From an uncultured Gemmatimonadales bacterium (GTDB lineage: Bacteria > Gemmatimonadota > Gemmatimonadetes > Gemmatimonadales > GWC2-71-9): a stretch of DNA of 64,000 nt. The stretch spans positions 2,368,001-2,432,000 of the forward strand of contig CAWHFW010000005.1 of assembly GCA_963828735.1 (NCBI GenBank). The letters run 5' to 3'. The position numbers and the translations under genes are program-made. Under the pieces are notes generated by a model, which saw only the letters and a program-made list of their open reading frames with translations, ran no database searches and was not told the origin of the DNA. Every line of letters begins with the position of its first letter. Within the stretch, counting starts at the first letter, position 1. Shown in pieces: positions 26,058-40,751 of this stretch.

Positions 26058-28661
26058 TCATTGCTTCGACTTGAAGGTCGCAGCGAACCGCGGATCTTCG
26101 CGTAGGTCCTTGAGTTCCCAGCTATCGTCCTGGGACAAGGTGCCCAGTTGCTGCGGGTTGCTGGCCAGCCAGATGGAGATCTGTTTGAATGCGCCGTCCT
26201 TGTCGCCCAGGATGTCGAGGGCGACGGCCTCGATCTGTGCGAGATCGCGACTCGGATCCATCGATCCGTCCGCACGCGACCGTTCCGCCACGCGGCGGGC
26301 GCTGTCGGCAAGCCCGGCGCGCGCGAGGGCCACCGCCATCCGCATCTGCCCCTGCAGCTTGTTGAACGGGCGCAGGCTGGTCGGGCTGAGGCTGACGTAC
26401 TTGTCGAACGCAGCCCACGCCGCCGGCACGTCGGGCTTGGCGGCCTTGAGGCCGAAATACCAGATCTGACACTCCGCGAAGCGATAGTCGTCCGGGAATC
26501 GCCGCTGGCCCTCCTCGCACCACTTCTTCGCCTCGTTCGCGTCGTCGAGCTGGTAGGACGTCGAGAACAGCCGCCAGACCGTGACATTCGCATTCGTCAG
26601 ATACGGATCCGCCGTGTAGGCCCGCATGGCGGCCAGCTTCGCTTCACCGAGCGCCGGCTTGTTGATGAGCAGGTGGCTCAGCATGGTCCACGCGGAGGCC
26701 TGCGCCGGATTCTGTTCGACCGATGCACGAAGGTCCTTTTCGGCATCGGCAAACAGCTTCACACTTTCCGCAGGCGAGCCGCCGAGGTTGTTGAGCCATT
26801 TCCAGTAACGGAGCGTGCCCCGGACCTCCAGGGCGTCCGGATCGTCCGCCTTGAGAGACAGAGCGTGCTCGGCATACTTGATTCCGGCATCGAGGCTTGC
26901 GGCGTCGGCGGTTTCGGTGATGCGCGACTGCCGGAACACGAGCCAGGCGCGAAGCACCGTCGGCGCGGGCCAGGCGGGGTCCTTCGACTCCGCGCGCACG
27001 AGCATCGAGTCGGTCTTCTGGAACATGCGGAAGGCGCCGGCCGTATCGCCGGTCGCCGCCAGAGCGCCCGCGTCCCGAGCGCCGGCCTCGGCCCGCTGGT
27101 AAATGGTCCAGGCCTCGACGTCCCGGGTGGTTGCCCGGGTCTCGCGCACCTGCACCTCCTTGCCCAACTGCCGCCGAAGGAACTCCGACACCTGCTTGCT
27201 CATGTCGTCCTGCAGGGCGAAGAGCTCGCCCCGGGGCCGCTCGAGCGTGGTGCTGCCCAGCTCGCGGCCGGTCGCGGCCTGCACGAGCGAGACGTTGAGG
27301 CGCAGGCGGTCGCCTGATTCGCTCACGTCGCCATGCACCAACGTGCCGACGTTGAGGTCCTGGGCGATCTTCACGAGTGGTGTCGTGCCCTGTTTGTAGG
27401 GTCGGACACCGTTGCCGGAGATCACCTGCAGTCCTTCGACTCCGCTCAGCTCGCGGATCAAGGCTTCCGTGAGACCGTCAGCCAGAAAGCCGAGGGAATC
27501 CGATCCGCCCCGCTGCTCGAAATACAGCACCGCGATGTGGGTCGGATCGAGCGCCTCTCCCGCTTCCTGCCCACCCGTCGCCGCCGCGCCGCCGCGCTGG
27601 GTGAATTTCCATACGCCGAAGCCCGCCGCCGCCAGCAGCACGAGTCCGCCCGCGATCATGGACCAGAGCTTGACCTTGCTCCGCTCGGGTGGCGCCGCCT
27701 CGACCTCCGCCGTCTTCCGCCGCGGACCCGCCCCGGTCGTCCGCGCCGGCTGCGCCCCGCTGGCCGCCCGGCGCGCTGCCGTGGATGCCCGCCGCTGCGC
27801 GGTTCTGGCCACCGCCGCCTCGGCCTCCGCCTCCTCCAGCCGCTCGGCGAACTCCTTCATCGTCTGGAACCGGTCGGCCGGCGTCTTCTCCAGCGCCTGC
27901 ATGACCGCGTCCTCGACCTCGTCCGGGATCGACGCGCGGACGACCTGCAGGCTCGGCACCACTTCCATCGAGTGCCGGGCCATGATGGCCATGGAGTTCG
28001 GGCCGGTGAACGGCGGCTGGCCGATGAGCACCTCGTACAGCACGCACCCCAGGCTGTAGATGTCGCTCCGGGCGTCCACGTGCTCGCTACCGAGAGACTG
28101 CTCCGGGCTCATGTAATGGGGAGTGCCGACCGCCATGCCGGTCTGCGTCAGCTTCTCGCCGCCGGCCGAGCTCACGGCGCGCGCGATCCCGAAGTCGGCG
28201 ACGAGGGCGTGGCCGCCGAGCAGCAGGATGTTCTCGGGCTTGATGTCGCGGTGGACGATCCCGCGCTCGTGGGCGTACTGCAGTGCCTCCGCCGCCTCCC
28301 GGACGATGGAGAGCGCGTCATGGATCGGGAGCTGCTGCTCCTTGTTCAGCCGGTCCCGGAGCGATTCGCCCTCGATGAAGGGCATGACGTAGTACAGCAG
28401 CCCGCCGGCCGCCTCGCCCGAGTCGTACAGACCGAGAATGTTCGGGTGCTGAAGATTGGCGGCGACGCGGATTTCACGGAGGAAGCGGTCGCCGCCAAGG
28501 GAAATGGAGAGCTCGGGCCGGAGAACCTTGATGGCGACCGTGCGCTCGATCTTGAGGTCCTTCGCGCGGTAGACCGTCGCCATGCCGCCCTCGCCGACCT
28601 GTTTCTCCAGGTCGTAGCGATCCCCGAGAGCGGAGCGCAGGCGTTCGAGCACGTCGGTCAC
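26058..28661 (-). CDS. Membrane Ser/Thr protein kinase with TolB-N-like and TPR-like C-terminal region
   Basis: GEGGMATVY, VAIK, HRDIKPEN, DFG, GTPHYMSPE, one TM helix, helical repeat tail. Confidence 0.93.
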   Translation of the reverse strand: MTDVLERLRSALGDRYDLEKQVGEGGMATVYRAKDLKIERTVAIKVLRPELSISLGGDRFLREIRVAANLQHPNILGLYDSGEAAGGLLYYVMPFIEGESLRDRLNKEQQLPIHDALSIVREAAEALQYAHERGIVHRDIKPENILLLGGHALVADFGIARAVSSAGGEKLTQTGMAVGTPHYMSPEQSLGSEHVDARSDIYSLGCVLYEVLIGQPPFTGPNSMAIMARHSMEVVPSLQVVRASIPDEVEDAVMQALEKTPADRFQTMKEFAERLEEAEAEAAVARTAQRRASTAARRAASGAQPARTTGAGPRRKTAEVEAAPPERSKVKLWSMIAGGLVLLAAAGFGVWKFTQRGGAAATGGQEAGEALDPTHIAVLYFEQRGGSDSLGFLADGLTEALIRELSGVEGLQVISGNGVRPYKQGTTPLVKIAQDLNVGTLVHGDVSESGDRLRLNVSLVQAATGRELGSTTLERPRGELFALQDDMSKQVSEFLRRQLGKEVQVRETRATTRDVEAWTIYQRAEAGARDAGALAATGDTAGAFRMFQKTDSMLVRAESKDPAWPAPTVLRAWLVFRQSRITETADAASLDAGIKYAEHALSLKADDPDALEVRGTLRYWKWLNNLGGSPAESVKLFADAEKDLRASVEQNPAQASAWTMLSHLLINKPALGEAKLAAMRAYTADPYLTNANVTVWRLFSTSYQLDDANEAKKWCEEGQRRFPDDYRFAECQIWYFGLKAAKPDVPAAWAAFDKYVSLSPTSLRPFNKLQGQMRMAVALARAGLADSARRVAERSRADGSMDPSRDLAQIEAVALDILGDKDGAFKQISIWLASNPQQLGTLSQDDSWELKDLREDPRFAATFKSKQ

Positions 28662-28787: not shown

Positions 28788-29618
28788 TCATCCGACCGTC
28801 ACCGCGGCCAGCGCGTCGCGCATCGCCGCAGCGGTCTGCCACCGCTCCTCCGGCGTCTTGGTCAGGGCACGACCGATGCCGGTGGCCAGATCGGCGGGGA
28901 TCTCGGGGCGAAGGGTCCGGAGGTCGGGAGCCGGCTGGGTGAGGTGCAGCTGCAGCACGACCGCCTCGTTGCGGTGCACGAACGGCGGCTGACCCGCGAG
29001 GCACTCGAAGAGCACGCAGGCCAGCGAGTACAGGTCGCTGCGGAGGTCGATCTCCTGGAGCGCGGTGATCTGCTCCGGACTCATGTAGGTCGACGTGCCG
29101 ACCGCAATGCCTGATCGGGTAAGGCGTTCGCTGCCGGAGGCCCAGACCGCCCGAGCGATCCCGAAATCGAGCAGGACGGCGCCATGGGGAGAGATGACCA
29201 CGTTCTCCGGCTTCACGTCCCGATGGATGATCCCGTGACCGTGAGCGTGCTCCAGCGCGTCGAGCAGGTTGTCCGCGATGCGGAGGGTGTCCGGCACCGA
29301 GAGTCGTGACCGCTGGGAGAGGAACTCGCGAAGGGTAGCGCCCTCCACATAGGTCATCACGTAGTAGACGAGCCAGTCCCGTTCGCCCGAGTCCAGTAGA
29401 TGCGCGATGTGCGGGTGGTTCAGCTGGGAGGCGAGCTTGATCTCGCGGAGGAATCGGTCGGCCGCGACGCTGACCAAAAGCTCCGGGTGCAGGATCTTGA
29501 GCGCGACCGGCTCGCCGCCGGGCTCGCGAGCCAGGAAGATACGGGCGTTCCCGCCCTTCCCGATCTCGCGCTCGACGTCGTACCGACCCTCGAACGCCTG
29601 ACGGACCAGCGCCAGCAT
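28788..29618 (-). CDS. Ser/Thr protein kinase (kinase domain only)
   Basis: GKGGNA, VALK, HRDVKPEN, DFG, YMSPE. Start approximate. Confidence 0.9.
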   Translation of the reverse strand: MLALVRQAFEGRYDVEREIGKGGNARIFLAREPGGEPVALKILHPELLVSVAADRFLREIKLASQLNHPHIAHLLDSGERDWLVYYVMTYVEGATLREFLSQRSRLSVPDTLRIADNLLDALEHAHGHGIIHRDVKPENVVISPHGAVLLDFGIARAVWASGSERLTRSGIAVGTSTYMSPEQITALQEIDLRSDLYSLACVLFECLAGQPPFVHRNEAVVLQLHLTQPAPDLRTLRPEIPADLATGIGRALTKTPEERWQTAAAMRDALAAVTVG

Positions 29619-29947
29619 GTCGCGTCGAATGACTGGGCCCTTGCGGAGGACCCCCCAATGGTTACAGCAACATCCCTTGCGCGCAAGTCGTGGCGGCACA
29701 GGGGCCTGGGAGGCCGCGAGCGATCGGGCGATCCGTCGTCGGGCAGTCGGAGGTGCGCCGTCGCCGTGAGCGGGCCTGGAGCGGTGAACCGATAGGGACG
29801 CGAACGATAGCATGACAGAGGGAGAGGCGGCGTGGCTGATCCGGCTGAAGTGCTGGTGGGTAACTGCTCACCGAGCCCGCCTGAGATTTCACGCTTGGCT
29901 CACTGGGAAGCTTGGCAGGGTGCTACCCGCTCCCACCGTTCGTCGCC

Positions 29948-31999
29948 CTAGAGCATAATGTCGGTCCTCACCCGCTGTCGCACGCCCCACCACAGCGCGC
30001 CCCACAGGTTGGACCGGCGGAGCGTCACGCTCGCTTCGCCCGTCATGCCGGGCCGCCAGCGCCCGCCCCCGCGCAGTCCGAGGCGAGCTTCGACTGCCCC
30101 GGAGCTCGGCGCCGAGCTCTGGGCGACACCCCCGACCTTTCCGCTGAGCGTGCTCCCGTCGGCGTGGAAGACAAGGCGCGCCTGCTGGCCCGCCCGGACC
30201 TGGGTGGCGCCGGCACCTGCCAGTGCGATGCGAACCTCCAGGGAATCCGGCTGGCCCAGCTCGAGCAACCGTTCACCGAGACTGACCCAGCGGCCGGTGA
30301 GACGTTCGGGGCGCGAGGTGACCACGATTCCCGGAACGAGCGCCCGAACGGTCAACGCCCGCTGTTCCGCGGTCATGCCGCCCAGCCGAGCGGCTTCGGT
30401 CGCCCGCTCGGCCTCGATTCGCGCCGTTTCGTCGGCCCGGCTCGCGGCGCGGGCCTGCGCCTCGCGGGCCTCCAGCGAGTCGACCAGGCGTGCGGATTCG
30501 AGCGTCGCATGCTCGAGCTCGAGGTCGCGTACCTGCACGAGCGGCATGCCGGCCTCGACGCGCGTCCCCTCGCGCACGTACACGCCGGCCACGATGCCGC
30601 TGTCGGGCGCCGTGAGTGGCACCGACAGGGCCGGCATGACCGAGAACGCACCGGTCACCGTGATGGGCCGCGGGATGATCGTCCCCGCCACGAGCACGAG
30701 CGCGCCCGCGATGAGCAATCGGTCGCGCAAACGCCGTCCTGCCACCCTGGCCCGAAACTCCCGCCACGCGGCGAGACCGGTCTGCGCCGCGCTCCGGATC
30801 GCCGAGCGCGACATCAGCCAGACACCGAGCACGAACAGCGCGCCGCCCGCCAAGCCCAGCGCGCGATCGAGCCAGCCGTACACGCTGCCGGCCACCAGCA
30901 GCATGATCGAGGTGATGTACCATGTCGCGAGCAGGCTATAAATGAGGAAGATGCGCTGCTCGCGCTCGTCGGCCGGCGGCATGGGCACGTCGAGCCGGAG
31001 CACGCGCGCCTTGACCAGCCAGCCGAGGTGCGCGAAGGCGCGCTGCCTGAGATTGGGCACCTCGAGCCAGTCGCTCAGCGCGAAGTAGCCGTCCAGCGGG
31101 ATGAGCGGATTCGCGTTCATGACTACCGTCGTCACCCCGCCGATCAGGACCGCGCTCAGCGCGATGTGCGAGATTAGCGTTCCCGGCGTCGCGGCCCACC
31201 ACACGATGGCGGCGAGGCTCGCCGCCACGACCTGAATCCACGATCCGGCCGCCGTGACCCAGAGCCGCGCCTTGAGCTCGGGGAAGGTCCAGGCATCGTT
31301 GACGTTGCAGAAAAATGCCGGCTCGAAGTAGAGCAGCATGGCGCCGATCTCGTGCACCTGGCCGCCGAAGTACTTGCACGTGTAGCCGTGTCCCAGCTCG
31401 TGGATCACGATGACCACGACGGCGGTGAGCCAGAGGGTCAGGAACTCGCTTGCCGAATAGCTGAAGGTGTAGAGGCTGTGGAACGCGGCAGTGAGCTCGG
31501 GCCACTTGAGCGCGGCAACGATGAAGTAGATCGCGAAGAGAAAGACCGACGCGATCACGAAGCCTCGGGTGAACATCCAGCGGAGGTACGGGATGGTGCG
31601 GTCCATGAACTTGTCGGGGTCGCCCATGGACCAGCGGATCCGGAAGATGTCCGTCTGCCCGAGGCCCCCGCTCAGCCGCTGCCGCCGCTGCGCGCGAAGC
31701 CGCTCCATCATGAGGACGGAGCGCTCGCCCACGGTGCGCTCGAGCAGGCCCATCGACTTGAGCTTGGCGGCGAACTTGTCCACCGCCGCCGCCGACACGC
31801 CGATTCCGCCCGCGACCAGGTCCGCCGCCACCTCGGCCGCGCTCCGCTCGCCGTCGAACTGCTGCAGCACGCGCACCTCGACCGGCCGGAAGCGGAAATA
31901 CTTGCGCGACTTCGGATCCTTGACGATGAAGCTCTGCTCGCCGCGGTAGGTCTGCTCGACGACGGTGAGGTCGGGCCGGAGCTTGGGCGCGCCGCTCAC
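29948..31999 (-). CDS. RRE/PqqD-like + site-2 protease (M50) + HlyD adaptor fusion (YydH-like peptide zinc metalloprotease)
   Basis: N-terminal ~85 aa (PKLRPDL...FIVKDP..RKYFRF...FDG.RS..EV...KLKSMGLL) fits an RRE fold. HELGH and NPLIPLDG are M50 motifs. TM helices, then a lipoyl/coiled-coil/barrel adaptor (VREG..V.AG.PL, WRPGMTG). GTG start overlaps the upstream TGA. Confidence 0.88.
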   Translation of the reverse strand: MSGAPKLRPDLTVVEQTYRGEQSFIVKDPKSRKYFRFRPVEVRVLQQFDGERSAAEVAADLVAGGIGVSAAAVDKFAAKLKSMGLLERTVGERSVLMMERLRAQRRQRLSGGLGQTDIFRIRWSMGDPDKFMDRTIPYLRWMFTRGFVIASVFLFAIYFIVAALKWPELTAAFHSLYTFSYSASEFLTLWLTAVVVIVIHELGHGYTCKYFGGQVHEIGAMLLYFEPAFFCNVNDAWTFPELKARLWVTAAGSWIQVVAASLAAIVWWAATPGTLISHIALSAVLIGGVTTVVMNANPLIPLDGYFALSDWLEVPNLRQRAFAHLGWLVKARVLRLDVPMPPADEREQRIFLIYSLLATWYITSIMLLVAGSVYGWLDRALGLAGGALFVLGVWLMSRSAIRSAAQTGLAAWREFRARVAGRRLRDRLLIAGALVLVAGTIIPRPITVTGAFSVMPALSVPLTAPDSGIVAGVYVREGTRVEAGMPLVQVRDLELEHATLESARLVDSLEAREAQARAASRADETARIEAERATEAARLGGMTAEQRALTVRALVPGIVVTSRPERLTGRWVSLGERLLELGQPDSLEVRIALAGAGATQVRAGQQARLVFHADGSTLSGKVGGVAQSSAPSSGAVEARLGLRGGGRWRPGMTGEASVTLRRSNLWGALWWGVRQRVRTDIML

Positions 32000-32991
32000 G
32001 GTGTGGTCCGCACCACCTTCTCGCCGGCGGCGATCCCGCTCACGACCTCGACCCGGTTGCCGTCGAGGTCCGCGCCGAGCGTGACCGCGCGGAGCGTGGT
32101 GCGGTTGTCGTCCCACACGAGCGCGTAGCCGTCCTTGGCCACCGCCGAGCGCGGGATGGCGACGACCCGCCGCCGCTCGGCGCCGAGCTGCACGGTGACG
32201 CTGCTGCCCGGCGTCAACGCCGAGCCGGGGGCGAGCTGCAGAATGACCTCGCGGGTGCCGCTCGCGGCGTCGATGACGGGCGACGTGCGAACGACCCGGG
32301 CCTCGGCGCTGGCGCCGCGGACGGCGAGCACCCGCCCCGTCGCGCCGACCCGGATCGCGGACGAGGCCGTCTCCGGCACGCGGACCGCGGCCAAAACGGG
32401 GGCGAGCGCCGTGACACGGAAGAGCGAATCACCCGCGTTGACCAGACGTTGCACGCGCGCCATCCGCGCGGTCACCACCCCGTCGAACGGCGCGACGATG
32501 CGGGTCAAGTCGTAGTCACGCTGCGCCTTCCTCACCGCGAGATCGGCCGCGCGGTGCTCGAACTCCACCTGCTCGGAATCGGCGCGAGTGACCACGCCGG
32601 CCGTGGCCAGCGCGCGTTGCCGCTCGACCCGCTGGGAGGCGTTGGCCGCCTGCTCGCGGGCCTGGTCGAGCGCGATCTCCTGGTCGGTACTCTCGAGCTG
32701 GGCGATGAGCTGACCGGCCGCCACGCGCGTGCCGATGTCCGCGAGGATGCGCTCGACCTGCCCCGAAGACCGCGCAACGACTGCGGCGTCGTGTTCCACA
32801 TAGAGTTGCGAGGAGAGGCTCAGCGGGCGGTCCACCGTCGTGCTTTCGGCTGTCTCGATGTTCCCTGGCGGAGGCGTCGTGATGGTGGCGGCGGCCGCGG
32901 TCTCGATCGTGCGTTTGCGGTCCGGCACGTTGTCACCGGCGCCGGCGCAGGCGGTAAGCAAGATCGCGAGCGGCAGGGCGGTGCGGGTCAC
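31996..32991 (-). CDS. RND-type periplasmic adaptor (membrane fusion) lipoprotein
   Basis: Lipobox LLTAC, IVAPFDGVV, SPVIDAASGT, VEVVSGIAAGEKVV. GTGA overlaps at both ends. Confidence 0.9.
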   Translation of the reverse strand: MTRTALPLAILLTACAGAGDNVPDRKRTIETAAAATITTPPPGNIETAESTTVDRPLSLSSQLYVEHDAAVVARSSGQVERILADIGTRVAAGQLIAQLESTDQEIALDQAREQAANASQRVERQRALATAGVVTRADSEQVEFEHRAADLAVRKAQRDYDLTRIVAPFDGVVTARMARVQRLVNAGDSLFRVTALAPVLAAVRVPETASSAIRVGATGRVLAVRGASAEARVVRTSPVIDAASGTREVILQLAPGSALTPGSSVTVQLGAERRRVVAIPRSAVAKDGYALVWDDNRTTLRAVTLGADLDGNRVEVVSGIAAGEKVVRTTP

Positions 32992-34916
32992 GACCAGATC
33001 CTCCACCAGAAGAGACGGCCCCACCGGAGCGGTCCGCGGAAGAGCCGCGTGGCTGCGGAGGCCGGGTCGGTGAGCACGCGGACGTAGGCCGCCATGCTCG
33101 GCTTGAGCGCGCCGTCGGGATTCGCCACGACGGCGCGGACGGGATAGCGCACCTCGCCCGCGGTGTCGGCCGGAATCGGGGCCACCGCCAGCACTCGGCC
33201 GACGAAGGTGCGCTGGGGGACCGCATCCACCCGCAGGTGCACATCCTGACCCGCGCGCACGCGATCGATGTCGCGCTGGGGCACCCCGAAGTCGAGCTCG
33301 AGCGAGTCGGTCCGCCCGATGGCAAGGAGCTCGTCGCCTTCCTCGAGGGACGCGCCCACGCGCTCGGTGACCCGCGGGGTCAGGACCACGCCGGGAACCG
33401 GCGCCCGCAGGGTCGTGAGCTCGACTTCTTCATCGAGCAGCGACACCTCGCGTCGCAGCGCGTCGCCGCGGAGCCGATGCAGCCGCTCCTCCGACGGGTC
33501 GCCACGGCTCGCGGCGAGCGACGCCAGTCGATCCGCGGAGGCGGCCTCGGCCGCGGTGGCTTCGCGGTCGGCGCGCAGCGTGGTGGCGCGGAGGTAGGCG
33601 ACCGGCGTCCCCCGGGACACGACGCTCCCTTCGGCCACCGGAATGCGCTCGACCACGCCCGCCACGAGCGCCCGGACCGGTGCGAATCCCATCGCGCGGA
33701 ACGCGGCGTCCTCGCCGGCTACCCGGAACGGCCAGCGAATGAGGAACAGCCCCGCGACCACGACCGCGGCGACGGCCGCGTAGATCTTGAGCCGGCGGTG
33801 TGGAATCGAGCGCAGCGCCTGCCGCTTGGCGGCCAGCGCACCCAGCGCGTCCACCATCGGGACCTGGTGGTAGAGCTGGGCATTCCGCAGCGCCACGGCC
33901 GTCTGGTTGGCCAGAATGGCGGCGACTTCGCGCTGCGTCGGCGTGGTGAAGTCGGCCGAGCCGGCCTCGAAGACCAGCACGCCGAGCACGCCCTCTTCGT
34001 CCTTGAGCGGGAGATAGAGGCCGCTCTCGACTCCATCGCTCTCCAGGTCCGGGCCGAAAATGGTGACGAACATCCGCTCGGCGTCCGAGCCGGGCGCCCC
34101 GCGCTCGACGAGGTAGAGCGGCTCGCCGCGCCCCGCGGCCCATTCGGCGCGGGCCACCAGGTCCTGCAGCTTGGGATCCTTCGGATCCACCGTCTCCTCG
34201 CCTGCCACCGCCCGGATGTCGCAGCGTCCCTTCTCGTACAGGGCGACGGCGGCGCGATCGAACGACAGCGCGCGCGAGGCCAGGTTGACCACCGATTGCA
34301 GCACGCGGTCGAGATCGAGTGTGGCCGTGATCTCGCGGCTGATGTCCAGCAGGACCGCGAGGTCACCGGCCCGCCGGCTCGCGGCGTGGAGCTGCGCGTT
34401 GCGCAGGGCCACGGCAGCCGTGGCCGCCAACCCCTCGAGAAAATCGCGATCGCGCTCGTCGAAGATGCCCTCGTCCGTGACCTTGCTGGTCACCTGGATC
34501 GCGCCCACGGTGTCACCGCCGGCCACCATCGCGGTGGCCATGACGTTGAAGCCAAGGGTTTCGGTCGAGGGGTCGGACCCCGGCTGAAATCGGGGGTCCT
34601 CCTGCGCACGGGTCGCCATCGTTGTCGTCTGCTGCTGGGCGGCCTCGCCGATGAGGCCGGTCCCCACGGGGACTTCGGCGCCGATCAGGCGCGAGCCTTG
34701 GCCGCCGACCGCGATGCGGCACCTCAGCACGTCGCCGTCGGCGATCCAGATGGATCCCCCTTCGGCGCCGAGGGCGGCGAGCACCCGGTCGAACACCTTC
34801 GGCAGCAGCTCATCGAAATCGAGGGACGCGCCCAGCTCCAGGCTGATGGACTGGAGCAGGCGCAAACGCTCGACTTCCTCGCGGAGTTCGTCGGTCGACG
34901 TTGCAGGTGCGCTCAT
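32988..34916 (-). CDS. GAF-GAF-TM-HlyD adaptor fusion protein
   Basis: Two GAF domains, each ending AVALRNAQL, then a TM helix and an HlyD module (LRAPVPGVV, LKPSM). Confidence 0.9.
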   Translation of the reverse strand: MSAPATSTDELREEVERLRLLQSISLELGASLDFDELLPKVFDRVLAALGAEGGSIWIADGDVLRCRIAVGGQGSRLIGAEVPVGTGLIGEAAQQQTTTMATRAQEDPRFQPGSDPSTETLGFNVMATAMVAGGDTVGAIQVTSKVTDEGIFDERDRDFLEGLAATAAVALRNAQLHAASRRAGDLAVLLDISREITATLDLDRVLQSVVNLASRALSFDRAAVALYEKGRCDIRAVAGEETVDPKDPKLQDLVARAEWAAGRGEPLYLVERGAPGSDAERMFVTIFGPDLESDGVESGLYLPLKDEEGVLGVLVFEAGSADFTTPTQREVAAILANQTAVALRNAQLYHQVPMVDALGALAAKRQALRSIPHRRLKIYAAVAAVVVAGLFLIRWPFRVAGEDAAFRAMGFAPVRALVAGVVERIPVAEGSVVSRGTPVAYLRATTLRADREATAAEAASADRLASLAASRGDPSEERLHRLRGDALRREVSLLDEEVELTTLRAPVPGVVLTPRVTERVGASLEEGDELLAIGRTDSLELDFGVPQRDIDRVRAGQDVHLRVDAVPQRTFVGRVLAVAPIPADTAGEVRYPVRAVVANPDGALKPSMAAYVRVLTDPASAATRLFRGPLRWGRLFWWRIWS

Positions 34917-34946
34917 GTCGGGTAGTTGAGGAGGGGCCTAACGACG

Positions 34947-34982
34947 GGCTCCGGCTTCCCGCAGTCGGGGGAAGCCGGAGCC
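34947..34982. terminator. Strong stem-loop between the peptide genes and the export genes
   Basis: GGCTCCGGCTTCCC-N8-GGGAAGCCGGAGCC, a perfect 14-bp stem with no clear U-tract. Confidence 0.6.
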
Positions 34983-35025
34983 GAGGCGCCCGCGGGAACC
35001 GCGGGCGGACGATCTACGCCGCGAG

Positions 35026-35154
35026 CTAGATCTTCATCGGCGCGATCTTCTCCTCGAGCTCTTCGACGCCAAGCTCGACGTCCTTGGCCGGGACCGGCTT
35101 CTTCGGCTGCTGTTCGGGGGTCTTGGTCCGGGACTGCTCGTCGTGCTTGATCAT
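35026..35154 (-). CDS. Small precursor-like peptide B (42 aa)
   Basis: Hand-translated: MIKHDEQSRTKTPEQQPKKPVPAKDVELGVEELEEKIAPMKI. Shares the ELxVEELExxIAP motif with peptides A and C. Confidence 0.8.
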   Translation of the reverse strand: MIKHDEQSRTKTPEQQPKKPVPAKDVELGVEELEEKIAPMKI

Positions 35155-35201
35155 GATAGCTCTCGTTTCGGAGAAGGTCGAGGGTGGAACGTCGTTTCGG
35201 G

Positions 35202-35360
35202 TTACTTGTGGCCCGGGATGATCTTGGCCGGCGCGATGCGAGCCTCGAGCTCCTCGACCGAAAGCTCCACGGCCTCGGCATCCTTCCCAGTCGCCTTGCG
35301 AATGCTGTCCTTCTGCTCGGTGGTCAGATCGATCCGGAACGAGTCCTTGGCGCTTGACAT
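35202..35360 (-). CDS. Small precursor-like peptide A (52 aa)
   Basis: Hand-translated: MSSAKDSFRIDLTTEQKDSIRKATGKDAEAVELSVEELEARIAPAKIIPGHK. AGGAG RBS. Paralog at 39784..39939. Confidence 0.9.
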   Translation of the reverse strand: MSSAKDSFRIDLTTEQKDSIRKATGKDAEAVELSVEELEARIAPAKIIPGHK

Positions 35361-35415
35361 CGTGAGCTCCTGGTGTGGGTCTGCGATTTGGGGGCGGCCA
35401 GACTGACTGGGAACG

Positions 35416-35469
35416 AACCTACCAGGCTGCCGTGAAAAGATCGTGATTGCCTACTTGCCCTTCCGTCAA
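35416..35469 (-). promoter_or_regulatory. Putative SARP-activated promoter of the peptide/export operon
   Basis: Minus strand: TTGACGG-N15-ATCACGA-N4-TTCACGG-N8-TAGGTT. Same geometry as 39981..40034. Confidence 0.75.
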
Positions 35470-35508
35470 TCCCCGATACGTTAGCAGGGTCTTCCCCTTG
35501 GACCATTC

Positions 35509-37758
35509 GTGTCCGCCTTCACGCTGCGACTCTTCGGTGCCCCAACCCTCGCGACCGCCGAGGGGAGAACGGCCGTGCCCGCCTTGGGGGCCAAGCCGCT
35601 CGCCCTGTTGGCGTACCTGGTGCTGGAGCCCCGTCAGCACACCCGAGAGGCGCTGGCAGGGCTCCTGTGGGGCGAGTCGCCCGAGGCCGAGGCGCGTGCC
35701 TCCCTTCGGCAGGCACTCAAGCATCTTCGGGACGTGTTCGGTGACCAGCTCCATGCCGAGCGGGCGCTCGTGGAGTTGGCCGCACCGCTCGCCTGTGATG
35801 CCCTGGAGTTCCGGGCAGCGGCGGAGCGCGACCCCGTCCATGCGGTCGGCTTCGACGTTCCCCGGTTCCTGGAAGGGTTTTCGGTGCGCCGAGCGCCGCA
35901 GTTCGAGGAGTGGGTTTCCACGGCGCGCGGGGGCCTGCTCCGGCTTTACCATCAGGCGCTCGATCGCGCCGCCCGGGAATCGATGCGCCAATGCCGGTGG
36001 CGCGAGGCGGTGGAGCTCGCCGACCGGTGGCTCGCGAGCGAGCCAGTGTGCGACGAAGCGGCCCATCTCGCCGTCGAGGCACGCTACCTCTCGGGCAACC
36101 GCGCCGGGGCGATGGCGCGGTTCGCGGAGTACCGGGATCTCCTGGCCCGTGAGGCGGGGTGCGAACCCGGCCGGGCCCTCGAAGCCCTGGTGCGGCGGGT
36201 CGAGGCGGATCGGACGACGCACGACGCGGCGCCGATCACCGACGAGTGGTACACCCGCGCTCCGACCTTCGACGCGAGCCTAGTGGGGCGCGACGCCCAG
36301 TGGAAGGCGCTCACCGCGGCGTGGAAAGGCGTACAGCGCGGACAGGGCCGCATCGTCCTGATCGACGGCGAATCCGGCGTCGGCAAGTCCCGCCTGGCCG
36401 ACGAGTTCCTGCGGTGGGTGGTGGCCGAAGGCGGGACGACTTTGCATGGGCGGAGCTACGACCGCCGCGCGGGCATTCCCTACGAGCCCGTCGTCGAAGG
36501 GCTCCGCTGTGCCCTCGGCGCCCCCGGACTGGGTGGCACCTCGCCCGAATGGCTGGTCGAGGTGGCGCGACTTCTTCCGGAGATTCGCGAGCGCTTCCCG
36601 GGCCTGCCCGCTGGGGGGGAAGCCGATGCGACGGAAGGGTGGCGGCTCTTCGAGGGCGTGGCGCAGCTCCTCAGCACCATCGCCGCCGAGCGGCCGGTGG
36701 CGATCGTCATCGACGACCTGCAATGGTGCGACGAGGACAGCTGCAACCTCATCCGGTTTCTGACCCGCCGTCTCGAGCGCTCCGCCGTCCTGTGGCTCGG
36801 CGTTTTGACCCTGGGTGAGGTCGAGCGTGACGCGCCCGCGTCCCGCCTCTGCCGAGCGCTCCGCGCCAAGGGTTCCGCCGACGCCCTCACGGTGGGGCCG
36901 CTCGGCGAAGAGGACATCTGGCAGCTGGTGCGCGAGATGGGGCACGTGAGCGTGCCCACTGGGGGGCGCCGACTGGCCGCTCGTCTCCATCGGATCACGG
37001 GCGGCAATCCATTCTACGTGATCGAGCTGCTCAAGACGATGTTCGCTCAAGGCCTACTCTCCATGGACGGGGATACCGGCGAATGGACCGTGGTGCCCTC
37101 CGAGGTCGGGGCGGGCCGGGAGGTGCCGGTCTCGCAGACGGTGCAGGACGTGATCGCCGAGCGGGTCGATCGGCTGTCCACCGACCTGCGTGACGTCCTC
37201 ATCACGATCGCGGTGAGCGGCGGCGGGTGCCGCCCGGACGTCCTTTCCCACGTGCACGGGATCTCCCGGCTTCGCGCCGCGTCCGCCGGCGACGCGCTGG
37301 TGGATCGCTATCTCGTCACCGAAGAAGGCGGCTGGTACCGGTGCATTCACCCGGTCATCGCCCACATGGTACGGGACGGCCTCACGGCCTCGCGCCGGCA
37401 GGAGGTGCACCGCGCGATCGCGTTGGCCTTCGAGCTGGTGATGGAGGGAGACGAGCTGGTCGCGGTCGCTGGGGAGATCGCGCGCCACGCGGAGCGGGGA
37501 GGCGAGCGGGATCTGGCGTATCGCCACGCGCGACGCGCGGCCGAAAGCGCGGTGACGCGCTACGCCTACGCCGAGGCACTCTCGTGGCTCGACCTCGCGG
37601 CGTCCTCCGCCCGCGGCTCCGTGCAGGTGCAGGCGGTGGATCAGCTGACGGCCGAAGTCATGGAACGCGCCGGTTGGAGCGAGGCCCCGCGCCGGGCGAC
37701 GGCGCCCGTCACGCGCGAGATCGTGAGCGAGGATTTCGACCTTCGTGTGCGCGGCTAA
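35509..37758 (+). CDS. SARP/AfsR-like regulator (wHTH + BTAD + AAA ATPase + helical region)
   Basis: LRLFG...ALLAYL...REALAGLLW...SLRQAL, FLEGF...FEEWV (BTAD), Walker A GESGVGKS, IDDLQW, TGGNPF. Confidence 0.92.
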   Translation: MSAFTLRLFGAPTLATAEGRTAVPALGAKPLALLAYLVLEPRQHTREALAGLLWGESPEAEARASLRQALKHLRDVFGDQLHAERALVELAAPLACDALEFRAAAERDPVHAVGFDVPRFLEGFSVRRAPQFEEWVSTARGGLLRLYHQALDRAARESMRQCRWREAVELADRWLASEPVCDEAAHLAVEARYLSGNRAGAMARFAEYRDLLAREAGCEPGRALEALVRRVEADRTTHDAAPITDEWYTRAPTFDASLVGRDAQWKALTAAWKGVQRGQGRIVLIDGESGVGKSRLADEFLRWVVAEGGTTLHGRSYDRRAGIPYEPVVEGLRCALGAPGLGGTSPEWLVEVARLLPEIRERFPGLPAGGEADATEGWRLFEGVAQLLSTIAAERPVAIVIDDLQWCDEDSCNLIRFLTRRLERSAVLWLGVLTLGEVERDAPASRLCRALRAKGSADALTVGPLGEEDIWQLVREMGHVSVPTGGRRLAARLHRITGGNPFYVIELLKTMFAQGLLSMDGDTGEWTVVPSEVGAGREVPVSQTVQDVIAERVDRLSTDLRDVLITIAVSGGGCRPDVLSHVHGISRLRAASAGDALVDRYLVTEEGGWYRCIHPVIAHMVRDGLTASRRQEVHRAIALAFELVMEGDELVAVAGEIARHAERGGERDLAYRHARRAAESAVTRYAYAEALSWLDLAASSARGSVQVQAVDQLTAEVMERAGWSEAPRRATAPVTREIVSEDFDLRVRG

Positions 37759-37777
37759 CTGGAGACCACGAGGCATC

Positions 37778-38692
37778 ATGTTACGCACCGCCCTGCTCGT
37801 CTCTGCCACCGTGCTGCTCGGCGCGGCCTGCGACGACCTTCGTCTTCCCGCGCTCCCCGCCAAGGCGGGAACCGACACCGCGGTGGCCACCGCCTCGCCA
37901 TCTTCACCGAAGCCGAACCGTCCTGTCCGTCGCGCCACCAACGTCGACCCGGCGCTCGCCGCCCAGCGGCTCGACCTCGTGCGCCGTGAGCTTCGCCGCC
38001 TGGTGGTCTCGGAAGAGACGTACTACGCGGAGAACGGGACCTATACCGAGGACCTCGCCCGGATCTCATTCGCGCCACGAAACGACGCCGACGTTCGATT
38101 CCTTTGGCTCGCGCGGGGCGGATGGGCGGCCAGCGGCACCCATCCCGATGTCCCCGGCCGCGATTGTGTGGTGTACGTGGGGCGGGCGCACGGCGCGCCC
38201 ACGACGCTGCACGACGTGCGTCAGGGACGTGAAGGCGCGCCCGTGTGCGACGGACCGCCGCCGCGCCCGGTCCCATCGCCGGCGCAGCCCCAGACGGCGG
38301 CGGGATCTCCCTCGAGCCCGGCCGTCGCCTCGGCGCCGACGGAGTCTCCGCCGACCACGCCCGACACGGGCAGCGCGCTCGACATGGTGGATCCTGCGGT
38401 TCAGATGCGCGTGGACCTTAGGAATCTCGTGCTATCCCAGGACACCTATTTCGCCAACCAGGGCATCTATTCCCGGCGGACCGAGCCGTTCGCGCTCCAG
38501 TACCTCTGGCACCGCGGCGTCACGATCTCGATTCTGACCGCGACGGATGCGGGGTGGTCCGCCAGGGCGACCCATGCGTCGCGGCCCGGGAAAAGCTGCG
38601 TCATCTGGCTCGGAACGGTGACACAGCGGCCGGCGACCGAGGCGCAGAGGCGCACGCCCGAGCAGCCTGGGGCGCCCGTCTGCGACAGCTGA
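37778..38692 (+). CDS. Lipoprotein with two tandem pilin-like domains and a Pro-rich linker
   Basis: Lipobox LGAAC. Internal repeat LRRLVVSEETYY..GWAA..TH..CVV..GAPVCD / LRNLVLSQDTYF..GWSA..TH..CVI..GAPVCD. Confidence 0.7.
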   Translation: MLRTALLVSATVLLGAACDDLRLPALPAKAGTDTAVATASPSSPKPNRPVRRATNVDPALAAQRLDLVRRELRRLVVSEETYYAENGTYTEDLARISFAPRNDADVRFLWLARGGWAASGTHPDVPGRDCVVYVGRAHGAPTTLHDVRQGREGAPVCDGPPPRPVPSPAQPQTAAGSPSSPAVASAPTESPPTTPDTGSALDMVDPAVQMRVDLRNLVLSQDTYFANQGIYSRRTEPFALQYLWHRGVTISILTATDAGWSARATHASRPGKSCVIWLGTVTQRPATEAQRRTPEQPGAPVCDS

Positions 38693-39722: not shown

Positions 39723-39757
39723 CGCCCCCTCCCGCCGCAAGTCGGCGAGAGGGGGCG
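39723..39757 (-). terminator. Hairpin downstream of peptide C
   Basis: 15-bp stem with a 5-nt loop. The single mismatch is a G-U pair only on the minus-strand transcript. Confidence 0.65.
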
Positions 39758-39783: not shown

Positions 39784-39939
39784 TTACTTGTTGCCCTTGA
39801 TGGGGAAGGGCTTCGCCGGGGCGATACGCTCTTCGAGCTCTTCGACGTTCAACTCGAGGGCCCGGGCGTCCTTCCCGGTGGCGGCCTTGACCTGAGCCTT
39901 CTGCTCTTCGGTAAGCTCCAGGCGGATGTGCTCGGACAT
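39784..39939 (-). CDS. Small precursor-like peptide C (51 aa)
   Basis: Hand-translated: MSEHIRLELTEEQKAQVKAATGKDARALELNVEELEERIAPAKPFPIKGNK. AGGAG RBS. Paralog of peptide A. Confidence 0.9.
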   Translation of the reverse strand: MSEHIRLELTEEQKAQVKAATGKDARALELNVEELEERIAPAKPFPIKGNK

Positions 39940-39980
39940 TGTGCGCTCCTGTCGGGGTGGGGGACTGATCGACAGGGGGC

Positions 39981-40034
39981 AACCTAGGCCACCGTCGTGA
40001 ATATCCGGTGAATTTGGGCGCGGGCGACCGTGAA
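39981..40034 (-). promoter_or_regulatory. Putative SARP-activated promoter of peptide C
   Basis: Minus strand: TTCACGG-N15-TTCACCG-N4-TTCACGA-N8-TAGGTT. Confidence 0.78.
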
Positions 40035-40674: not shown

Positions 40675-40747
40675 TGGGGTGTAGCTCAATCGGCAGAGCG
40701 CCCGGCTGTTAACCGGGAGGTTGCTGGTTCGACCCCAGCCGCCCCAG
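40675..40747 (+). tRNA. tRNA-Asn (GTT)
   Basis: Acceptor stem TGGGGTG/CGCCCCA, D arm GCTC..GAGC, anticodon arm CCCGG-CTGTTAA-CCGGG, T arm GCTGG-TTCGACC-CCAGC, discriminator G. CCA is not encoded. Confidence 0.96.
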
Positions 40748-40751
40748 TCGA

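Follow-up and report, generated by a model that had tools for sequence, protein, structure and literature searches.

Promoters controlled by SARP-type regulators follow a published rule in which the 3' repeat of the binding site is separated by 8 bp from the -10 element, while the repeats are 11 or 22 bp apart (PMC10936776; the rule is also laid out in PMC5930380), and passages of two reviews call these regulators exclusive to actinobacteria (PMC10972967, PMC7040171). The descriptions of ActII-ORF4, DnrI, PimR, and NosP (PMC10972967, PMC5930380) have heptamers with 4- or 15-nt spacers in common with the promoters studied here, and NosP is reported to control a ribosomal-peptide cluster and to respond to precursor-derived ligands (PMC10972967). 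Another described system is AfsR of Streptomyces coelicolor on the afs box of the afsS promoter (PDB 8HVR, 8K60; PMC10936776, PMC11301090), with which our regulator shares the wHTH-BTAD plus ATPase layout. As described there, the afs box likewise consists of two 11-bp-spaced repeats with A at position 4 that lie 8 bp before a weak -10 and replace the -35, and the AfsR circuit likewise has a small protein gene as target and Ser/Thr kinases nearby. EmbR of Mycobacterium tuberculosis (PDB 2FEZ) is a wHTH-BTAD relative. On the side of the target genes, the closest described peptides are daptides, whose leader motif ELExMEAP is removed by an RRE-fused site-2 protease (10.1101/2023.03.08.531785).

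The window that we analysed, a stretch of 64,000 nucleotides on contig C5 of a 4.78-Mb genome, encodes a 749-aa protein (35509-37758) with the N-terminal OmpR-type wHTH and following BTAD by which SARPs are recognized. BTAD is matched at E 3e-9 and Trans_reg_C weakly (E 0.002, below the cut-off), the Walker A residues G287, G290, G292, and K293 are invariant, and a profile search of the PDB returned AfsR and EmbR only as relatives. Unlike AfsR (993 aa), the protein has no Pfam TPR match, an AAA_16 rather than an NB-ARC ATPase, and an R-Q instead of an R-T helix; its heptad is TTCACG, its predicted targets are peptide, protease-adaptor, and kinase genes, and a third heptad lies in its own predicted promoter. 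It scores 19.9 of 1430 bits against the NCBIfam model of AfsR (NF053617), far below the equivalog cut-off, and together with the lack of any TPR family match at E 0.01 this indicates a regulator that is AfsR-like in its working but not an orthologue. The cluster SARPs differ from it in their heptad and in that its operon lacks antibiotic-type biosynthetic enzymes, while EmbR carries an FHA domain where this protein has the ATPase. All 18 named records with close homologues (18/18) are titled Gemmatimonadales, another difference from AfsR and a departure from the actinobacterial host that descriptions of SARPs include; the host is therefore likely non-actinobacterial, as the first-pass annotation had supposed. 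The promoter rule is already known, but it appears here outside actinobacteria, with its own heptad and targets, and the full SARP promoter logic appears to be conserved across an order of another phylum. Our search of the open-access literature turned up no publication that deals with SARPs in Gemmatimonadota or with a recognition code for SARPs.

Two side observations concern the regulator gene itself. Most orthologues share a short conserved tail motif at the C-terminus (37700-37758, plus strand), and directly 3' lies a lipoprotein-like gene with two repeated domains (37745-38692, plus strand) that is found in many orthologous loci and gave no Pfam match.

Operator geometry and its conservation

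The operators lie upstream of two peptide loci, which we call A and C, and read TTGACGG-N15-ATCACGA-N4-TTCACGG-N8-TAGGTT at locus A (minus strand, 35469-35416) and TTCACGG-N15-TTCACCG-N4-TTCACGA-N8-TAGGTT at locus C (minus strand, 40034-39981). Both strings are exactly as the first-pass annotation had given them, and the SARP-type geometry that it recognized agrees with the published rule, with heptamers 11 or 22 bp apart and the 3' one 8 bp before the -10 (PMC10936776). The features of the two promoter regions are as follows:

35430..35447, minus strand: operator A, tandem heptads ATCACGA-N4-TTCACGG, predicted SARP dimer site, present in 30/30 orthologous loci
35416..35421, minus strand: TAGGTT, -10 hexamer of the promoter for the peptide A/B operon, at a distance of 8 nt to the heptad pair, with a predicted +1 at 35408-35410
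35463..35469, minus strand: distal degenerate heptad TTGACGG of locus A, within the spacer of the SARP gene's predicted promoter
35455..35482, plus strand: predicted sigma70-type promoter of the SARP gene, TTGCCC-N16-TACGTT, with a 16-nt spacer in 28/30 loci and 17 nt in 2
35509..37758, plus strand: SARP-type regulator, 749 aa, wHTH + BTAD + AAA_16 ATPase
39995..40012, minus strand: operator C, TTCACCG-N4-TTCACGA, the pair being present in 10/10 C-type loci
40028..40034, minus strand: TTCACGG, the distal heptad of operator C, 22 bp upstream and in perfect form at gap 15 in 7/10
39981..39986, minus strand: -10 hexamer TAGGTT of the peptide C promoter, with a predicted +1 at 39973-39975

The core signature consists of two [T/A]TCACG heptads with a period of 11 bp, followed after 8 nt by a NANNNT -10. 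A pair-plus-10 pattern matches the window at two sites only, A and C, and none of 100 shuffles has any match, a control that is post hoc because the pattern was derived from these two sites. A and C are identical at 22/27 motif positions and at 7/27 spacer positions, as expected if selection maintains the motif while the spacers diverge. The peptides are homologous, so the likeness might also stem from common descent of the promoters, by duplication of a peptide gene with its upstream DNA, or from chance; given that spacer identity is down to 7/27 with the motif still at 22/27, and that unrelated genes (LuxR, DUF4440, kinases) bear the box, we give this explanation next to no weight.

Conservation of the spacing in orthologous loci was one of the points on which the first-pass annotation had staked its reading, and the spacing is kept in 30/30 A promoters and in 10/10 C pairs. 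In the locus-A set (our own promoter and 29 relatives), TCAC is invariant in both heptads (30/30), the proximal heptad always begins with T (30/30), the -10 at spacer 8 has A2 and T6 throughout (n=30), and about 65 nt separate the pair from the start of the SARP gene in all 30 loci; the N8 columns of the alignment hold 0.1-0.8 bit, compared with 2 bits for the TCAC columns. Among the ten best C-type loci, the pair is present in 10/10, the -10 at spacer 8 in 9/10, and a perfect distal heptad at gap 15 in 7/10, so that the three-heptad geometry holds at C. Two narrower claims stand only in part. The identical -10 hexamer is correct for our own A and C promoters but not for the orthologues of A, where TAGGTT occurs in 6/30 promoters beside CAGATT (8), TAGCTT (5), GACATT (4), and CACATT (3) and where the first base is T in 13/30. 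The distal heptad at N15 is likewise borne out at C, whereas at A its gap to the pair varies between 14 and 16 nt and its position is fixed to the divergent SARP promoter.

At both promoters, the heptad pair stands in for the -35. By analogy with the AfsR structures, two wHTH-BTAD protomers would occupy the pair next to each other and bring in sigma region 4 together with RNA polymerase. Since the operator overlies the -35 region, a frequent site of repressor binding (PMC7040171), the adjacent SARP could in principle bind the boxes and repress the peptide promoters. Apart from the heptads there is no conserved -35, however; many of the -10 hexamers are weak (T as first base in 13/30), and the spacing of 8 nt has the strictness that activation through polymerase contact requires, so that we find repression very improbable and retain activation.

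The distal heptad of locus A belongs to a different arrangement. The N15 stretch holds a conserved -35 on the opposite strand (TTGCCN-N16-(-10) in 28/30 loci, N17 in 2), and the heptad, a perfect TTCACG in 18/30 loci, falls inside the predicted promoter of the SARP gene, past its -35 and ahead of its -10. From this placement it is likely an autorepression site through which the SARP would damp its own transcription.

The box also goes with the peptide genes: a strict box lies within 220 nt of 51/61 A/C-type genes and of 1/13 B-type genes (classes assigned by regular expression). In several relatives, a second box begins at or just past the stop codon of the first peptide, which suggests tandem peptide copies with promoters of their own.

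Candidate binders of the operators

The divergent SARP is very probably the activator that acts on the conserved TTCACG operators A and C. Among relatives, the exact pattern is present in 34/34 genomes with an orthologue of this SARP (one of the 34 being a contig-end fragment) versus 2/26 without, and the reversed pattern is present in 0/61. In a phylum-wide draw scored with 13 candidates per genome, it was found in 23/26 orthologue-bearing genomes and was absent from 3/26, versus a presence in 16/174 genomes without an orthologue. This co-occurrence is partly built in, since these loci supplied the pattern and a box lies on the same contig as its gene, and the related genomes behind the counts are not independent.

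A second line of evidence comes from paralogues. In our genome we count 11 SARP-like genes whose N-terminus is intact, and a repeat-N8-TAnnnT arrangement is found on the divergent strand at 6/11 of them compared with 2/523 control gene starts; in this unanchored test with a sliding window, spacers of 6-10 are indistinguishable, and an anchored version was used afterwards. The heptads differ between the paralogues (TTCACG, GTCACG, GGAACG, ATGAC/GCGAC, and GTGAGG), which points to the adjacent SARP as the binder.

OmpR/PhoB-type response regulators also bind 11-bp direct repeats. They share fold family and period with SARPs, our genome encodes six OmpR-type regulators, and a PHO4 transporter gene lies about 3 kb away, so that the repeats might be boxes of such a regulator; AfsR and PhoP sites are in fact described as overlapping (PMC10972967). 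Yet at the pho/pst locus (C5:806-818 kb), no matrix match with a spacer of 8 or 9 reached 14 bits, and the four stretches tested there contained no 6-of-7 repeat. Genomes that lack the SARP orthologue are almost free of the pattern, and the change of heptad with the neighbouring SARP inside one genome argues against a single global regulator. We consider a response regulator very improbable, and a reading of the repeats as Pho boxes was rejected on the lack of any box in the four stretches, where promoter positions are unmapped.

The main binder could instead be another SARP paralogue with a small-R-Q helix, or several paralogues could act in cross-talk. Such R-Q helices are common among SARP paralogues, and the paralogue at C5:778154 has a G-R-Q helix predicted to read a similar TCAC site and faces a divergent promoter with [G/A]TCAC[G/C] repeats in the same geometry. 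Against this, in 30/30 loci the box lies divergent from a single orthologous SARP, which it accompanies across genomes, and the proximal heptad here has T at position 1 in 30/30, compared with mostly G or A at the other R-Q clades; another SARP is thus an unlikely main binder, and we continue with the adjacent one. As separate observations on the paralogue at C5:778154 (minus strand), its open frame is only about 260 aa long and is followed by a Ser/Thr kinase gene, and four TCAC heptads at 11 bp with a TAGGGT face a divergent lipoprotein-like gene.

A candidate code linking helix residues to heptad bases

The natural series of paralogues and their promoters yields a candidate residue-to-base code. 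Across 68 paralogue loci, 23/68 have a box at period 11 and spacer 8, while other spacers give at most 8, other periods at most 2, and shuffles 0.25; the anchor on A at position 4 was picked after inspection of these first 68 loci. The helix-to-base code was fixed before the retrieval of 76 held-out loci, in which a box is present at spacer 8 in 15/76 when 5/6 identity is required (no other spacer exceeding 4) and in 34/76 when 4/6 is required (no other exceeding 8). Most loci lack one under stringent matching, and 35/68 and 42/76 are without a box even at 4/6 identity. In the 34 held-out loci with a box, the code is correct at 125/170 bases, compared with a mean of 83.6 and a maximum of 111 over 5000 permutations; by position, it is right at position 2 in 48/58, at position 3 in 43/60, and at position 5 in 34/52, the last rule being the worst contributor to the 45/170 wrong bases.

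With 58 de-duplicated loci and 100 columns, an information scan puts R67 with position 5 (z 11.2), A64 with position 3 (9.3), and L49 and Q68 with position 2 (both 9.2) at the top; L49 equals Q68 in score but carries low information. Residues A64, R67, and Q68 are invariant in 12 orthologues of our SARP, and the code applied to this protein gives nTCACn, which is the observed box. The covariation thus pairs A64, R67, and Q68 with heptad bases C3, C5, and T2, and these residues may contact the bases directly.

R67 and Q68 align with R87 and T88 of AfsR, for which the two structural studies name the same residues with base assignments that agree with the code only roughly. In one, R87, Q81, T88, and R92 are the residues that probably make specific contacts with -37T/-36C/-35A (PMC11301090), and the other places R87 on the backbone, T88 at -36 (position 3), and R92 at -38 (PMC10936776). 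The upstream AfsR repeat is given as starting with TTCAGC (10.1101/2023.09.04.556155), in which A4, T2, and C3 fit the code but C5 does not: AfsR carries R87, yet has G or T at heptad position 5. The same residue-base pairs recur in several branches of the tree, and a tree-aware independent-pairs test gave 1 supported pair, too few for significance. We regard the three-residue code (64, 67, and 68 to heptad bases 3, 5, and 2) as a strong lead that is not proven. If it holds, SARP targets would be predictable from sequence, which would permit a rational choice of cluster activators in natural-product discovery.

Further paralogues illustrate the range of boxes. The one at C5:2518829 (plus strand) has an R-K helix, and GGAACG repeats accompany it in 4/4 orthologues from two families. 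The gene divergent from it in our genome is presumably related to peroxiredoxin, which it resembles. Plasmid-borne BTAD loci of Skermanella, Deinococcus (2), Kovacikia, Thermus, and Acetoanaerobium (6 of 9 matches examined) showed no convincing box, with one weak spacer-8 match in an AT-rich region.

The wider predicted regulon and the peptide operon

The first-pass annotation held that the shared site ties peptide C to the operon. The same operator does stand at A and C, but the regulon is wider than these two loci. A scan of our genome with a matrix trained without site A found four sites of at least 22 bits at spacer 8, namely A, C, C7:41065 before a gene for a DUF4440 protein that likely carries a signal peptide, and C5:1704341 before a homologue of a LuxR-type protein, plus a further site of at least 22 bits at spacer 9 before a kinase gene. 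Trimer-block shuffles gave 0-1 matches and a period of 12 gave 4, all in long open frames, so the single-genome scan by itself is not decisive. Across relatives, the box is conserved at the LuxR gene in 8/14 (5 incomplete loci omitted) and at the DUF4440 gene in 11/26 (2 omitted; 9/9 of the closest), compared with 1/40 for an opposite-strand control, and these counts support both genes as distant targets. Boxes in relatives also precede distant peptide copies, kinases, and lipoproteins (20 stretches chosen from the matches). A 17-base pattern matched 107 metagenome stretches; 22 of the 80 examined precede such a peptide, and 14/80 have the peptide and a divergent SARP within 350 nt. Through the operator, peptide genes at scattered positions would belong to one regulon with a LuxR regulator and a DUF4440 protein, which offers a first handle on when the ELExRIAP peptide family is made.

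At C5:1105308 (minus strand), upstream of a Ser/Thr kinase gene, the TTCACGG pair is perfect and a -10-like hexamer stands at spacer 9, which makes this gene a possible further target. The fourth peptide copy of our genome (C5:2539868-2540025, plus strand) has an NHNE-containing tail and a TPR gene as its neighbour. It lacks a box (C5:2539949), but its homologue in relative G007 has one upstream.

From promoter A, the reading direction leads through the following genes, listed here with peptide C:

35202..35360, minus strand: peptide A, 52 aa, a conserved leader ending in an ELExRIAP-type motif plus a short variable tail
35026..35154, minus strand: peptide B, 42 aa, without a box of its own (B-type genes with box, 1/13)
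34947..34982, minus strand: strong GC hairpin past peptide B, without a U-tail, z -4.6 for the folded stretch
32988..34916, minus strand: GAF-GAF-HlyD adaptor protein
31996..33024, minus strand: membrane-fusion adaptor (RND_mfp)
29948..31999, minus strand: RRE-like + M50 intramembrane protease + HlyD, with HExxH and NPxxxxDG invariant
28788..29813, minus strand: kinase-only Ser/Thr kinase, 78-93% identical in full-operon relatives, with its own box in 2 relatives
26058..28661, minus strand: Ser/Thr kinase with a hydrophobic (likely membrane) segment and a TPR-type C-terminal region
39784..39939, minus strand: peptide C, 51 aa, beside coxG

This order of peptides A and B, GAF-HlyD protein, membrane-fusion adaptor, M50 protease-HlyD fusion, and two Ser/Thr kinases recurs in most of 22 longer loci as far as the contigs extend; in one of them (L233), the SARP alone was detected. 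The SARP would accordingly switch on the peptide genes, the downstream protease, export, and kinase operon, and a few distant genes. Peptide B is likely co-transcribed with A, as one RNA contig spans both. No intrinsic terminator was found in 34800-35600, and the hairpin after peptide B is likely a stabiliser or attenuator; a similar hairpin lies past peptide C (about 39723-39757, z -3.8 for the folded stretch). A sigma70-like site at 35181-35153, whose -10 falls on the peptide B start codon, was dismissed as chance.

RNA contigs from four soil and rhizosphere studies cover peptides A/B with clean ends at 35392, 35395, 35397, and 35398. No contig enters 35416-35469, and the ends lie 11-18 nt below the predicted +1 at 35408-35410; these ends are a weak hint, since contigs cannot show a start and there is no DNA control. 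Over locus C, all mapped RNA contigs are peptide copies of other organisms.

The peptide family comprises at least 4,414 clusters at 90% identity. Its members have no Pfam match, no convincing NCBIfam match (best E 0.001, in 1/37), and ESM Atlas matches to hypothetical clusters only, and we found no relevant paper on the EERIAP motif or on LEPR-XLL/M50/HlyD in the open-access literature. Like daptides and the protease MpaP, as described in the report cited above, these loci combine a leader motif (ELExRIAP) resembling ELExMEAP, an intramembrane site-2 protease fused to an RRE-like domain, and several short ORFs per locus. Unlike MpaP, the M50 protease is fused to HlyD and remains below the cut-off of the daptide protease family NF041824 (203 bits, cut-off 300; PqqD is matched weakly, E 0.018). 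Unlike those of daptides, the tails are short and hypervariable (mostly 6-14 aa, rich in K, R, and P, with 51/53 distinct and 1/53 ending in Thr, in a tally with three tails mis-cut by the regular expression). No daptide decarboxylase, aminotransferase, or methyltransferase gene was found among the neighbouring proteins scanned. The ELExRIAP peptides are not daptides.

By analogy with daptides, the RRE-M50 protease would bind the ELExRIAP leader and likely cleave it after Pro, freeing the short basic tails for export. Tail or leader might then feed back through the TPR kinase or the SARP, for which NosP offers a precedent (PMC10972967), and we consider such a signalling loop plausible though somewhat less likely than not; the ATPase domain or the co-operonic kinases may, more speculatively, gate the SARP. 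Taken together, a large Gemmatimonadales SARP network that uses the 64/67/68 code and has one member closing a peptide-signalling, quorum-sensing-like loop is a tentative and rather doubtful picture. In such a loop, the SARP would drive hypervariable-tail peptides, the protease/exporter, and two kinases, and processed peptide would feed back on the SARP. If true, a soil lineage that is abundant and for the most part uncultured would possess a circuit resembling quorum sensing, with operators predictable from protein sequence.

As a last observation near locus C, a tRNA-like sequence lies at 40675-40750 of the window (plus strand), just upstream of coxG.
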